Made by a program: the position numbers and the translations under genes. Shown piece by piece: positions 1-59,990 of a stretch of DNA of 64,000 nucleotides. Source of the stretch: Escherichia coli. GTDB taxonomy: Bacteria; Pseudomonadota; Gammaproteobacteria; Enterobacterales; Enterobacteriaceae. The notes under the pieces were generated by a model that worked only from the letters and a program-made list of their open reading frames with translations, was not told where the DNA came from and did no database searches. Numbering within the stretch: position 1 is the stretch's first letter; each line of letters begins with the position of its first letter. The stretch lies in assembly GCF_030384885.1 (NCBI RefSeq), contig NZ_CP128613.1; one strand, 5' to 3'.

Positions 1-603
1 ACCCAGGCCGATGCAGCAGAGCAAGGAGTTGTGATCAAGCCTGCACAAAATTCCACCGTTGCTGTTGCGTCGCAACCGACAATTACGTATTCTGAGTCTT
101 CGGGTGAACAGAGTGCTAACAAAATGTTGCCGAACAACAAGCCAACTGGGACCACGGTCACAGCGCCTGTAACGGTACCAACAGCAAGCACAACCGAGCC
201 GACTGTCAGCAGTACATCAACCAGTGCGCCTATCTCCACCTGGCGCTGGCCGACTGAGGGCAAAGTGATCGAAACCTTTGGTGCTTCTGAGGGGGGCAAC
301 AAGGGGATTGATATCGCAGGCAGCAAAGGACAGGCAATTATCGCGACCGCAGATGGCCGCGTTGTTTATGCCGGTAACGCGCTGCGCGGCTACGGTAATC
401 TGATTATCATCAAACATAATGATGATTACCTGAGTGCCTACGCCCATAACGACACAATGCTGGTCCGGGAACAACAAGAAGTGAAGGCGGGGCAAAAAAT
501 AGCAACCATGGGTAGCACCGGAACCAGTTCAACACGCTTGCATTTTGAAATTCGTTACAAGGGGAAATCCGTAAACCCGCTGCGTTATTTGCCGCAGCGA
601 TAA
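1..603 (+). CDS. nlpD: NlpD lipoprotein (LysM/M23 peptidase-like), C-terminal part; 5' end lies outside the window
   Basis: ORF runs to window edge; M23 peptidase-like C-terminus; immediately upstream of rpoS as in E. coli. Confidence 0.85.
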
Positions 604-665
604 ATCGGCGGAACCAGGCTTTTGCTTGAATGTTCCGTCAAGGGATCACGGGTAGGAGCCACCTT

Positions 666-1658
666 ATGAGTCAGAATACGCTGAAAGTTCATGATTTAAA
701 TGAAGATGCGGAATTTGATGAGAACGGAGTTGAGGTTTTTGACGAAAAGGCCTTAGTAGAAGAGGAACCCAGTGATAACGATTTGGCCGAAGAGGAACTG
801 TTATCGCAAGGGGCCACACAGCGTGTGTTGGACGCGACTCAGCTTTACCTTGGTGAGATTGGTTATTCACCACTGTTAACGGCCGAAGAAGAAGTTTATT
901 TTGCGCGTCGCGCACTGCGAGGAGATGTTGCCTCCCGCCGCCGGATGATCGAGAGTAACTTGCGTCTGGTGGTAAAAATTGCCCGCCGTTATGGCAATCG
1001 TGGTCTGGCTTTGCTGGATCTTATCGAAGAGGGCAACCTGGGGCTGATCCGCGCGGTAGAGAAGTTTGACCCGGAACGTGGTTTCCGCTTCTCAACATAC
1101 GCAACCTGGTGGATTCGCCAGACGATCGAACGGGCGATTATGAACCAAACCCGTACTATTCGTTTGCCGATTCACATCGTAAAGGAGCTGAACGTTTACC
1201 TGCGAACCGCACGTGAGTTGTCCCATAAGCTGGACCACGAACCAAGTGCGGAAGAGATCGCAGAGCAGCTGGATAAGCCAGTTGATGACGTCAGCCGTAT
1301 GCTTCGTCTTAACGAGCGCATTACCTCGGTAGACACCCCGCTGGGTGGAGATTCCGAAAAAGCGTTGCTGGACATCCTGGCCGATGAAAAAGAAAACGGC
1401 CCGGAAGACACCACGCAAGATGACGATATGAAACAAAGCATCGTCAAATGGCTGTTCGAACTGAACGCCAAGCAGCGTGAAGTGCTGGCACGTCGATTCG
1501 GTTTGCTGGGATACGAAGCGGCAACACTGGAAGATGTAGGTCGTGAAATTGGCCTCACCCGTGAACGTGTTCGCCAGATTCAGGTTGAAGGCCTGCGCCG
1601 TTTGCGCGAAATCCTGCAAACGCAGGGGCTGAATATCGAAGCGCTGTTCCGCGAATAA
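666..1658 (+). CDS. rpoS: RNA polymerase sigma factor RpoS (sigma-38), 330 aa, full length
   Basis: Protein begins [21 protein letters not shown], recognisable as RpoS; start taken at internal ATG of the longer track ORF (630..1658). Confidence 0.95.
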
Positions 1659-53759: not shown

Positions 53760-53955
53760 TATTCTACGAAATCTTCAGCGATGAAGGTGTCGAAGAGGTG
53801 GCGGTACTAACCGCAAGCACTAGGGAGGATAACGTTGCTTTAGCAACGGCCAGAAGGGCGAGCCGCAAGGCGAGTAATCCTCCCGGATGCACCATCTCTT
53901 ACTTGATATGGCTTTAGTAGCGATATCAATATCAGCAGTAAAATAAATTTCCCGA

Positions 53956-54032
53956 TGCATCCGTAGCTCAGCTGGATAGAGTACTCGGCTACGAACCGAG
54001 CGGTCGGAGGTTCGAATCCTCCCGGATGCACC
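53956..54032 (+). tRNA. argZ: tRNA-Arg (ACG), copy 3
   Basis: Identical 77-nt sequence to copy 1. Confidence 0.9.
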
Positions 54033-54231
54033 ATATTCTACGAAATCTTCAGCAATGAAGATATCGAAGAGGTAGCGGAATTAACCGCAAGCACCAGGAA
54101 GGATAACGTTGCTTTAGCAACGGCCCGAAGGGCGAGCCGCAAGGCGAGTAATCCTCCCGGATGCACCATCTCTTATTTGATATGGCTTTAGTAGCGGTAT
54201 CAATATCAGCAATAAAGTAAGTTCTCCCGAT

Positions 54232-54308
54232 GCATCCGTAGCTCAGCTGGATAGAGTACTCGGCTACGAACCGAGCGGTCGGAGGTTCGAATCCTCCCGG
54301 ATGCACCA
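54232..54308 (+). tRNA. argQ: tRNA-Arg (ACG), copy 4
   Basis: Identical 77-nt sequence to copy 1. Confidence 0.9.
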
Positions 54309-54588
54309 TATTCTCCGTAATCTTCAGCGATGATGGCATGGAAGAGGCGATGGTAATCACCGTCTGCTCCAGGGAGGATAACGTTGCGGCAGCAACGGCC
54401 CGAAGGGCGAACGCCAGTGAGTCATCCTCCCGGATGCACCATCTTCTCCAAAAAATCCCCTTCAAAAATATTTCATTTCTAAATAACTATTTTATCCATT
54501 TCCTGAATATTCTTCTCCTTCGCCATCAGCGACAAAATCAAGCAATTACGCTAAAGTAGCGTCATATTTTTCGACTTGCGAGAAGACC

Positions 54589-57217: not shown

Positions 57218-57290
57218 AAAAAGGCCACTCGTGAGTGGCCAAAATTTCATCTCTGAATTCAGGGATGATGATAACAAATGCGCGTCTTTC
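57218..57290 (-). ncRNA. micA: MicA (SraD) small regulatory RNA
   Basis: Minus-strand sequence gaaagacgcgcatttgttatcatcatccctgaattcagagatgaaattttggccactcacgagtggccttttt matches MicA as I recall it; 3' hairpin plus U-tract. Confidence 0.85.
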
Positions 57291-57874: not shown

Positions 57875-57887
57875 TCAATTGAAGAGG

Positions 57888-57917
57888 CCGGGCAGGTGAT
57901 ATCACCGCCCGGTTTTT
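57888..57917 (+). terminator. Rho-independent terminator after luxS
   Basis: Hairpin ccgggcaggtgatatcaccgcccgg followed by TTTTT; abuts the stop of the convergent gene at 57919. Confidence 0.75.
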
Positions 57918-57918
57918 A

Positions 57919-59031
57919 TTACCTGTCAGTCACCCGATATTCCACGCTATGTGCTTCATCAGGTTGAGGAACTTCCAGCCTTGAGGCCATCCGCATCACG
58001 ACCGCTTCAGGAACGGCATACTCGCGCCTGGCATTTTGCTGCTTCCATTGCGCCCATGGCACTTCCAGATAAACGATTTTTACTCGTGCGCCGTAAGCCG
58101 TAAACAGACTGATGAGCTGGCTACGCAGTTGGCGGGTAATGTTCGTTGCATTCCAGATGAACGGCTTTTTCTGGCGTAAAAAAACGCGCGCCTCTTCTTT
58201 TGCCTGTTGCACAATACGCCCGGTCGCGGTTTTGTCGTCCGGGCTGGCATTGATTCGCCGCCGCATATCATCAAGGCTGATAACGTCCATTCCCTGGCAC
58301 TGTTCACTGATATAGCGATCTTTGCCCATACCCGGTAAGCCACACAGCAAAATGACCTCAAAAGGTTCAGCCTCCCAGGGAACAAAATCAGGAGAACTTT
58401 GTTCATGGGTCAGATAATGCCAGCGTGCGGAATCAGACACGAACGAGCGCACTTTTCCCCAACACTGTTGCTCCTGGCAAAATAGCTCGAACAGATCGAT
58501 GCGTTCCAGCATTGATTGCTGATCATGACAATGGCGACCAAGCAGATCGGCACGAGCAAGCAAAGCGAGCAGACGCGTGTCGATACGCATTGCAGCCGTG
58601 AGCAGCAAACGCTCCGGTTCCGGACGTTCTAGTAACCATAGCGGTAACCCATGCAGACGCACCAGTGCAACAATTTGCTCGCGTAGCACGAACGGCGTCG
58701 GGATATCGCGCCATAAAATTTGTCGGGCCGTCAATTCACCCCGACGAGCATGACCAGGAGACTGAATACGTCCGTTTTCCTGCACGGTAGTACTGCGCTT
58801 TTCAACGTCATGCAATAACGCCGCCGCCCATAAAATTTCCTGCTGCTGAGCGGGGAGTTGCTGGAACTCTGGCAGAGCCACGAGTGCATTCAGCACCATT
58901 TCAGTATGCACACCAACGTCGCCTTCACCATGATGCTCCGGGTCTTGCGGCGTATTATGCATATCCTCAACCCAGCTAAAACGCTGGCGTAGCGTCGACC
59001 AGCGTTTGTCGTCGGTAAGTTGCCAAATCAT
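57919..59031 (-). CDS. HD-domain phosphohydrolase fused to a P-loop polynucleotide-kinase-like domain, 370 aa
   Basis: N-terminal HD signature ([10 protein letters not shown] ... LLHDVEK); C-terminal Walker-A-like GLPGMGKD and DVISLDD; not present between luxS and emrB in K-12 as I recall. Confidence 0.6.
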
Positions 59032-59735
59032 GACTGTTCTCCATAAGCGAACTCATGGGCCATCCGCGCCCGTCGCCAGTGGCGTTTCCAGTGCTCGGTG
59101 GTTTTGACATGATTTTTGCGTACATACTTGAAGACGTTATGCGAAAAGTCAGCGACGGAAAACGCATCACTATTCCGGCTGACAATGCCTTCCAGCGTAC
59201 AGGGTTGTCCGGTTTGCGTATCCCAGGGATCGAACGCACCGCGCGCATTGGTCAGCGCCAGAAAATCACGTTGCCAGCTTTTTTCATCATTCCCCGGCTG
59301 CGGGCCGGAGATTTCGGGAACGCAGGGGAAATCAAACAGAGCGGCGTAAAACTGCACCTCTTCCCAGCTCAGCCACATATCCTGGCAGCGAACGGCAAAC
59401 AGATAAAAATCCTGCTCCAGGGCGCGATATTCAATCGAATGAACGGCATAAAGATTTTCACCAAACAACTCCAGATCGCCGAGATCGTTTTTCAGCAGTT
59501 GCCAGCGTTGGCGAATTTTATAGGTCCATGCCGATTGTGTAGGCGCGGCATGGGAACGGGCAAACACGCCGTAGCGGTTAAGGCAGTTATTTTCACCGTC
59601 GAGTTTTTCAGTATGTACCAACTGCGAAATTGCCTGCATATCTTGCCAGTAACTGGCGTTAATGCGGTCATCGCTGGTGGTGCCAGGGGAGAAGGGGTAA
59701 TGCCAGGTTCTCCCGTATTTACGTTGGGTATTCAT
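59028..59735 (-). CDS. Small ATP-dependent nucleic-acid (RNA) ligase-like nucleotidyltransferase, 235 aa
   Basis: Covalent nucleotidyltransferase motifs in order: [41 protein letters not shown]; 4-bp overlap with the downstream gene. Confidence 0.6.
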
Positions 59736-59954
59736 AATAATCCATTATTTTTTGTGTAATAAACGTACGCCCGCGAGGGTGCGAGTTATGGGGTTAAAAA
59801 AAATGTGAGTATCACCCGCGAAAGCGAGGGCGAAGAAAAAAGAGAATTAACAACCTGAGCGAATGCTCAGAACCGGTTAATGGTGAATGGAAGAGTTTGG
59901 AGCGGCGAAAAGATACACCGTTTGAGATGATAAAACAACCGTTTACAGAATGAG

Positions 59955-59980
59955 CAAATAAAAAGGGAGCCGCAGCTCCC
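59955..59980 (-). terminator. Rho-independent terminator after emrB
   Basis: Hairpin gggagc-cgca-gctccc with U-tract on the minus strand. Confidence 0.7.
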
Positions 59981-59990
59981 TTTAACAACC

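Follow-up and report, generated by a model that had tools for sequence, protein, structure and literature searches.

The closest described relatives of the system considered here are the repair cassettes of Runella slithyformis (Munir and Shuman 2017; Munir et al. 2018) and Deinococcus radiodurans, in which a ligase of the LigB/LIG family is encoded together with the bifunctional end-healing enzyme HD-Pnk. A cassette of this kind was found in Escherichia coli (contig NZ_CP128613.1 of assembly GCF_030384885.1) and analyzed within a window of 64,000 nucleotides, i.e., the whole stretch of DNA under study; its ligase homologue is referred to below as LIG. The window matches the chromosome of strain 2013C-4282 at 100% identity. 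In Runella, the open reading frame (ORF) of a putative ATP-dependent ligase is located immediately upstream of that of HD-Pnk and overlaps it; this ligase self-adenylylates, and its partner combines an N-terminal HD-type 2',3'-phosphoesterase with a C-terminal 5'-OH polynucleotide kinase (PMC6097658). In Deinococcus, the ligase DR_B0100 (LigB, or DdrP) forms an enzyme–AMP adduct which is abolished by the K40A replacement, and the HD-Pnk homologue DR_B0098 exhibits 5' kinase activity (PMC1997131); a paper published in 2025 names DR_B0100 only "an RNA/DNA ligase" (PMC11833690). Judging by homology, the E. coli cassette is a member of this known group, already annotated and not new. The reading preferred here, to which a probability of roughly 0.7 is assigned, is that the E. 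coli ORF encodes a stand-alone ATP-dependent ligase domain of the LigB/LIG family which shares a transcript, and probably also translational coupling, with HD-Pnk, and that the two proteins heal and then seal nucleic-acid ends, those of RNA being the likelier substrate.

The comparison with Deinococcus was made with the megaplasmid locus taken from a plasmid collection and then translated; the DR_B0100 translation (MRVKYPS...VVTEK40LDGEN...) agrees with the published primers (PMC1997131). In BLASTP, DR_B0100 matched residues 6–216 of the E. coli ligase (36% identity, E 2e-28), and DR_B0098 aligned with the E. coli HD-Pnk along its entire length (29% identity, E 3e-31). Both ligases possess the N-terminal segment KYP..H.P.SPG..DD and the motif K.VR..HV.T..HW, although the Deinococcus protein is the shorter one (210 vs. 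235 aa). The Deinococcus operon starts with the ligase gene and ends with that of HD-Pnk, with a PARG gene (DR_B0099) in between; this insert is absent from E. coli, where a two-gene chromosomal cassette contrasts with the radiation-induced megaplasmid operon of Deinococcus. The Walker A motif of HD-Pnk also differs, reading GSGKST in Deinococcus and GMGKD in E. coli. The order of LIG followed by HD-Pnk in overlapping ORFs is common to E. coli and Runella, self-adenylylation being a property described for the Runella protein (PMC6097658), whereas the Tpt1 gene and the methyltransferase–HIT pair standing beside the Runella cassette have no counterpart at the E. coli locus. We infer orthology with the Runella proteins from their described architecture and from other members of Bacteroidota, not from the Runella sequences.

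Fold, motifs, and homology support the prediction that LIG is a lysine adenylyltransferase of the ligase type, with the adenylation domain as its sole domain. The ORF is a real one, with an ATG start followed by codons for 235 aa in total on the minus strand. A chance ORF or a pseudogene was rejected, since the ratio of nonsynonymous to synonymous substitution rates (dN/dS) of the ligase gene was 0.04–0.09 in four comparisons and the catalytic residues are invariant; the gene is thus maintained by strong purifying selection. The original prediction had read in this ORF the full ordered motif set of ATP-dependent polynucleotide ligases, and the motifs do occur where it had placed them: the Pfam family RNA_ligase (PF09414) is matched end to end (model positions 2–171 of 171, residues 38–205, E 5.3e-28, 98.7 bits). 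In an alignment of 61 sequences, including members down to 33% identity, K44, D46, G47, R60, E93, H99, Y103, E182, G183, V185, and K203 are invariant, and F113 (motif IIIa), V205, R206, H209, and W216 are conserved in at least 90%. Motif I (T-E-K44-L-D46-G47), with its lysine, aspartate, and glycine invariant, aligns to the KLDG of NgrRnl, and motifs Ia, III, IIIa, and IV follow in the canonical order, as in the superfamily of covalent nucleotidyltransferases (ATP-dependent ligases and capping enzymes). The motif set is canonical for I, Ia, III, IIIa, and IV, but not for motif V, which reads K203-x-V205-R206 instead of K-x-K, so only the first, invariant lysine is kept and the second is replaced. 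The distance from the motif IV glutamate to K203 is 21 residues, and the Pfam model stops at residue 205; in T4 Rnl2, with motif IV at E204 and motif V at K225/K227, the spacing between E204 and K225 is 21 residues as well. On these two grounds, V205 occupies the site of the canonical second lysine.

The AlphaFold2 model of LIG built on the 61-sequence alignment was confident, a single compact domain with secondary structure running to approximately residue 232 (predicted local distance difference test, pLDDT, 94.3; predicted template modeling score, pTM, 0.91). As anticipated in the original prediction, neither an OB domain nor another accessory domain is present in this 235-aa model, and only 30 residues follow motif V. 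The model adopts the adenylyltransferase-domain fold, its nearest solved folds are those of RNA ligases, and the motifs map onto the nucleotidyltransferase fold, so that the structural condition named in the original prediction as refuting it did not arise. Since accessory domains define the families Rnl2, Rnl3, Rnl5, and Rnl6, LIG stands outside all four. The family itself is large: the database proteins with a match to LIG at E < 1e-5 number more than 2,000, nearly all of them single-domain proteins of 228–250 aa (205–250 aa for the family range), and 1,317 clusters match at E < 1e-3 among the 1.84 billion cluster representatives scanned. No model for LIG was found in the NCBIfam search, and the profile search of PDB returned weak matches to ligases, as expected. 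Mollusc hemocyanins, which appeared in a single-sequence phmmer search against PDB (residues 77–173, E down to 3e-9), were rejected as relatives; these matches are spurious, because their scores sum many weak matches to repeats.

The downstream gene is predicted to encode a two-domain protein, with a phosphoesterase of the HD type at the N-terminus and a P-loop 5'-OH polynucleotide kinase at the C-terminus, both activities being ascribed by homology and supported by several lines of comparison. Pfam returned AAA_33 (E 6.6e-32) along with a weak HD match, and NCBIfam returned weak sub-threshold matches to the models of the bacterial Pnkp kinase and of the CCA-enzyme HD domain. The sequence search of PDB retrieved the kinase domain of Clostridium thermocellum Pnkp, which was also the top match of the AlphaFold2 model in Foldseek; mammalian PNKP, T4 Pnk, and the kinases of fungal Trl1 ranked next. 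Invariant in the paired alignment of 24 sequences are H/HD/H/D in the HD motifs, the lysine of Walker A, and the aspartate and arginine of the LD..R motif. The 4-nt ATGA overlap of the ligase stop codon with the HD-Pnk start codon suggests that the two genes are translationally coupled. As a separate observation, the Walker A motif of the E. coli HD-Pnk (residues 226–233, window positions 58333–58356) ends in Lys-Asp (GxxGxGKD) in place of the usual Lys-Ser/Thr; this aspartate is kept in 90% or more of the sequences of the Enterobacterales/Bacteroidota clade, whereas DR_B0098 and the eukaryotic fusions described below have GKST.

The linkage of the two genes was followed in a genome scan with one genome per species and a 12-sequence alignment as the query, which brought up at least 583 relatives; the examination was confined to the best 80 loci, all of them from Enterobacterales or Bacteroidota, at 59–96% identity, with Runella and Deinococcus not among them. 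Each of the 80 had an HD-Pnk homologue directly downstream in the same orientation, with an alignment gap between ligase and HD-Pnk of at most 139 nt in 79; the exception is a Dysgonomonas locus (L057) with an extra ORF between the two genes. The ligases of E. coli and Bacteroidota are approximately 64% identical, and those of Bacteroidota including Cytophagales, the relatives of Runella, are in the range of approximately 60–65%. The original prediction also allowed that LIG may rely on a partner protein for the healing of substrate ends: the presence of such a partner is borne out by the overlapping HD-Pnk gene and its occurrence in every locus examined, and the reliance as such is probable. 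Apart from HD-Pnk, no gene near the ligase was linked to it in every one of these loci.

Two less frequent neighbors are of relevance to the nature of the substrate. A gene of the RtcB family of 3'-phosphate RNA ligases was located immediately upstream of the cassette in 16 of the 80 loci (Bacteroides/Parabacteroides, Flammeovirgaceae, and Serratia); hence, two mechanistically different RNA ligases are clustered there with one end-healing enzyme. A gene of the RNA 2'-phosphotransferase Tpt1/KptA was found within 6 kb in two loci, i.e., in the Dysgonomonas locus, where it scored above the NCBIfam cut-off, and in L018. Distant plasmid-borne homologues of the ligase (30–36% identity) have other neighbors, e.g., an AAA ATPase gene upstream in Bacillus cereus.

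Homologues of LIG were also encountered as parts of larger proteins and in phages. In eukaryotes, “Swiss Army Knife” (SAK) proteins of the algal/dinoflagellate type, 1,000–1,400 aa in length (P0166, P0168, P0203, P0175, and others), contain a LIG-family module. Besides TPR-like repeats, they contain a phosphoesterase (2H-SAK), a phosphatase (PTP-SAK), and a kinase (AAA_33), as well as a pair of dissimilar RNA_ligase domains, one of which is the LIG-family module. Other relatives of approximately 350–390 aa (P0124, P0134, P0143) bear an N-terminal Cys/His-rich HNH-like module in front of the ligase (the Pfam match to HNH was weak, E 0.0012), and the phage family phrog_24030 resembles them in length and in the position of the ligase. 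Homologues of LIG occur in jumbo phages of 300–735 kb infecting Caulobacter, Agrobacterium, and Sinorhizobium (hits H56–H70). No natural fusion of the ligase with an HD domain was seen among 150 cluster representatives; the fusions observed were those with kinase, PTP, and 2H domains in eukaryotes and with the HNH-like module in the other relatives. The fusions tie the ligase module to end-healing independently of the operon, and the 2H domain together with the RtcB and Tpt1 neighbors suggests RNA rather than DNA.

Taken together, LIG–HD-Pnk is most likely a heal-and-seal module for the repair of nucleic acid, probably RNA. At the first step, K44 of the E. coli enzyme would attack ATP with the formation of ligase-(lysyl-N)-AMP, as has been demonstrated for two homologues. 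The ends would be healed by HD-Pnk: by analogy with the activity of its homologues, the kinase domain would convert 5'-OH into 5'-PO4, and the HD domain would strip 2',3'-cyclic, 3'-, or 2'-phosphates; these healing activities are reported for the Runella enzyme and known in part for the Deinococcus enzyme. The HD domain of Runella reportedly removes 2',3'-cyclic, 3'-, and 2'-phosphates, and the Runella HD-Pnk is said to dephosphorylate the 3'-phosphate ends of DNA as well. The ligase may then transfer AMP to the healed 5'-PO4 and seal it to the 3'-OH. Since LIG lacks an accessory domain for binding nucleic acid, sealing probably requires the partner protein or a particular geometry of the substrate. 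Broken RNA (from the cleavage of tRNA or rRNA by ribotoxins or from damage under stress) is a more likely target than DNA; the pointers in this direction are the RNA-ligase folds nearest to the model, the RtcB and Tpt1 neighbors (16 and two of the 80 loci, respectively, the latter also in Runella), the eukaryotic fusions, and the jumbo phages.

Several points weigh against this interpretation. No family member is known to seal conventional 3'-OH/5'-PO4 ends of DNA or RNA (PMC1997131; PMC5397189; PMC6097658): DR_B0100 ligated neither DNA nor RNA, whether by itself or together with the other products of its operon (PMC1997131; PMC5397189), and the Runella ligase did not seal standard DNA or RNA ends (PMC6097658). 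The deviant motif V described above is a further point, even if it does not stop self-adenylylation in the homologues (PMC1997131; PMC6097658). A complex of the two proteins was not confidently predicted: the AlphaFold2 model of the ligase joined to HD-Pnk by a G25 linker, built on the shallow alignment of 24 operon-paired sequences, reached a pTM of 0.59, and its ligase half was less confident than the ligase folded alone (a weak test, with the alignment this shallow and the output devoid of predicted aligned errors or contacts). The genetics of Deinococcus, where resistance to ionizing radiation and mitomycin C is involved, would by analogy point to DNA at least equally. Finally, no family of PADLOC-DB v2 matched LIG or HD-Pnk at E up to 0.01.

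The failure on standard ends would be explained if LIG were a 2'-phosphate-dependent RNA ligase resembling Trl1, which joins 3'-OH,2'-PO4 to 5'-PO4 ends and leaves a 2'-PO4 junction for Tpt1/KptA; substrates with 2'-OH would then be refractory. We regard this possibility as unlikely, albeit one with distinct hints behind it. The best profile match in PDB was the tRNA ligase of Candida glabrata (9qw7, E 7.5e-5); the match spans motifs III–IV and pairs the invariant H99 (HSIEY) with the histidine of the tRNA ligase sequence EEHILEY. The histidine adjoining motif III (CthLIG His227, Sce His193) contacts a 2'-PO4 mimetic, and in Chaetomium and yeast Trl1 it enforces, along with two arginines downstream of motif V, the requirement for 2'-PO4 (PMC11404444). 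However, the equivalence of H99 comes from sequence alignment alone, the glutamate of motif III and the histidine are spaced by six residues in LIG and by nine in Trl1, and the helical C-domain of Trl1 bearing the two arginines is absent from LIG, where the basic residues past motif V are nevertheless conserved (R206 and H209 family-wide, R222 in the close clade). As to the genomic context, Tpt1 clusters with the cassette in Runella (PMC6097658) and in the two loci mentioned, which makes this linkage rare (2/80), and a PARG/macro gene is present inside the Deinococcus operon. The 2H-SAK phosphoesterase of the eukaryotic fusions is likewise compatible with a Trl1-like enzyme. The CPD end-healing domain of Trl1, which yields 2'-PO4 ends, is itself a 2H enzyme, but the HD domain of Runella reportedly strips 2'-phosphates and would destroy the very end required. 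In a broader form, to which a similarly low probability is given, the family would represent bacterial ligases with a non-standard end requirement, most specifically the Trl1-like need for 2'-PO4 (or a modified end) and/or activation by HD-Pnk. If this were true, a new clade of RNA ligases would be at hand, along with a pathway for the orphan RNA 2'-phosphotransferase KptA of E. coli and for the PARG/macro, Tpt1, and RtcB neighbors found elsewhere.

A role as a DNA-break repair ligase, which the name LigB/DdrP implies and which would need accessory proteins for engaging DNA ends, appears rather improbable in our judgment. The evidence for it comes mainly from Deinococcus: radiation induces the operon, loss of HD-Pnk by mutation brings sensitivity to ionizing radiation and mitomycin C, and Kota et al. 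(2010) reported that DR_B0100 ligates DNA when DR_B0098 and PprA are present, as summarized in PMC6300522. The reported dephosphorylation of DNA 3'-phosphate ends by the Runella HD-Pnk speaks for it as well. According to PMC6300522, the radiation phenotypes of the DR_B0100 mutant are conflicting, with wild-type resistance in one study, and two laboratories saw no DNA ligation even when the proteins of the operon were mixed (PMC1997131; PMC5397189). A PprA-like gene was not seen to recur around the 80 loci, as far as can be told without a search aimed at PprA, RNA ligases supply both the nearest folds and the Pfam family, and the RtcB and Tpt1 neighbors and the 2H fusions are RNA-specific. Still less probable, to the degree of being hardly credible, is an adenylyltransferase that stops after the transfer of AMP (to yield 5'-adenylylated RNA or another modified acceptor); HD-Pnk would then serve to prepare this modification or to undo it. 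Such a role would accord with the deviant motif V, with the lack of a substrate-clamping domain in LIG, and with the fact that step 1 alone has ever been observed in the homologues (PMC1997131; PMC6097658). On the other hand, the step 2 and step 3 residues common to Rnl2 and Rnl5 (R60, E93, E182, K203) are invariant in the family, and the module recurs in fusion or linkage with end-healing enzymes, which are not known to serve any purpose other than making ends ready for ligation.

The cassette is a presence/absence polymorphism of E. coli. In K-12, 59 bp separate the stop codons of luxS and emrB, and the insert replacing this spacer is carried by 994 of 5,426 complete E. coli genomes (approximately 18%), being chromosomal in every case. 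The emrB–cassette–luxS arrangement was also found in Klebsiella spallanzanii, Superficieibacter, Enterobacter sp., and an uncultured Enterobacteriaceae genome, and emrB adjoins the cassette in Phytobacter. An origin from a mobile element or a defense island was considered; no mobility genes or repeats were found in the 2.1-kb insert, and the same emrB–luxS site is occupied in at least five genera of Enterobacteriaceae. The G+C content of the cassette (51%) is similar to that of the flanks. Two E. coli alleles of the cassette (window positions 57919–59735 and L003:6001–7814) differ at synonymous sites by dS of approximately 0.28 in the ligase and 0.19 in HD-Pnk, and the LuxS and EmrB proteins flanking them are 99.4% identical. 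This divergence suggests, as far as can be read from the sequences, an old polymorphism or an import by recombination.

The regulatory elements of the cassette can be outlined tentatively (Table 1). A hairpin is situated approximately 120 nt ahead of the start codon of the ligase. The spacer around it diverges, but the hairpin itself hardly varies among E. coli, Klebsiella, Phytobacter, Superficieibacter, and Enterobacter sp.; it could represent an attenuator/terminator, an operator, or a leader structure. The consensus scans for sigma-70 promoters and terminators returned nothing above background for the cassette promoter, and Rfam contained no known RNA element matching in or around the cassette, the hairpin included, except MicA beside luxS. 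The GC-rich hairpin followed by T5 between the stop codons of luxS and HD-Pnk, which was not flagged by the consensus scan and is unlike the luxS terminator of K-12, is putatively a terminator. Elsewhere in the window, the small RNA gene micA (positions 57219–57290, minus strand; Rfam RF00078, 83.9 bits) lies between gshA and luxS as in K-12 and is ordinary, and at positions 53840–54465 overlapping ORFs translate to a repeated peptide, with a tRNA-Arg annotated at the edge, just upstream of yqaB.

Table 1. Features of the E. coli cassette (coordinates in the window) and of related loci (coordinates preceded by the locus name).
Feature	Coordinates	Strand	Remarks
Whole cassette, 2,112 bp	57878..59989	.	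Replaces the 59-bp luxS–emrB spacer of E. coli K-12
LIG, 235-aa adenylation-domain-only polynucleotide ligase homologue	59028..59735	-	WP_001097123.1, RefSeq “RNA ligase family protein”
LIG motif residues			Nucleophile K44; Ia R60; III E93; IIIa F113; IV E182-G183; V K203-x-V-R206
ATGA overlap of ligase stop and HD-Pnk start codons	59028..59031	-	
HD-Pnk, 370-aa bifunctional end-healing enzyme homologue	57919..59031	-	WP_000638149.1, annotated “ATP-binding protein”
HD phosphoesterase domain of HD-Pnk (N-terminal, ~aa 1–200)	58432..59031	-	Metal-ligand motifs including ARAD
P-loop 5'-OH polynucleotide kinase domain of HD-Pnk (C-terminal, ~aa 223–370)	57922..58365	-	Walker A GLPGMGKD; Asp/Arg motif SLDDMRRR
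Upstream region, 255 nt, part of the cassette	59736..59990	-	Presumed promoter location
Hairpin CTGAGC-ATTC-GCTCAG	59854-59871	-	Palindrome AACCGGTT before, T-rich tract after
GC-rich hairpin then T5, between luxS and HD-Pnk stop codons	57886..57917	+	Read from sequence
RtcB-family gene	L065:4522-5937		Also in 15 other loci, L041, L058, L074, L009, and L010 among them
Tpt1 and unannotated 196-aa ORF (Dysgonomonas metagenome-assembled genome)	L057:38-592, 600-1190		~3 kb upstream of the cassette
256-aa ORF between ligase and HD-Pnk	L057:4105-4875		No family match

As a sequence observation, the cassette is ordinary, since the gene is annotated already and the architecture of the homologues has been published. 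Its interest lies in the substrate of a widespread and conserved ligase family rather than in the motifs: LigB/LIG has been an enzymological orphan since 2007, a strongly conserved family of self-adenylylating proteins which is found from bacteria to jumbo phages and algae and invariably goes together with end-healing enzymes, with the joined substrate as the puzzle. The presence or absence of the cassette at a fixed E. coli locus provides natural carriers, which makes both substrate and physiology genetically tractable; candidate functions include tolerance to ribotoxins or colicins, interactions with phages, and repair of RNA under stress.

Among the systems known in more detail, the Rnl5 ligases (NgrRnl of Naegleria, DraRnl of Deinococcus) possess an N-terminal OB domain, and T4 Rnl2 and the kinetoplastid REL ligases possess a C-terminal helical domain; these accessory domains are required for nick sensing or sealing, and both are missing from the E. 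coli LIG with its short tail past motif V. LIG shares 15–20% identity with Rnl5 and Rnl2 and differs from them in the segment after motif III (HSIEY) and in motif V (K-x-V-R). The bacterial Pnkp/Hen1 and Pnkp1–Rnl–Hen1 systems also heal and seal, combining a 5' kinase, a phosphoesterase, and a ligase of the adenylyltransferase type, and it is the kinase domain of C. thermocellum Pnkp that the E. coli kinase domain resembles most. The E. coli cassette differs from them in that its phosphoesterase is of the HD and not of the calcineurin type, its ligase is a separate polypeptide, and the Hen1 methyltransferase is lacking; in those systems, the ligase domain of Pnkp self-adenylylates but seals only once the partner Hen1 completes it, which offers a precedent for the probable dependence of LIG on HD-Pnk. 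Fungal and plant Trl1 (Rnl6) unite the same set of ligase, kinase, and phosphoesterase and share the histidine after motif III, whereas the E. coli LIG is devoid of the Trl1 C-domain, the functions are split over two genes, and the chemistry of the HD domain serves for the healing of 3' ends. The eukaryotic SAK proteins, in turn, contain the LIG-family module itself, fused to the 2H, PTP, and kinase domains.

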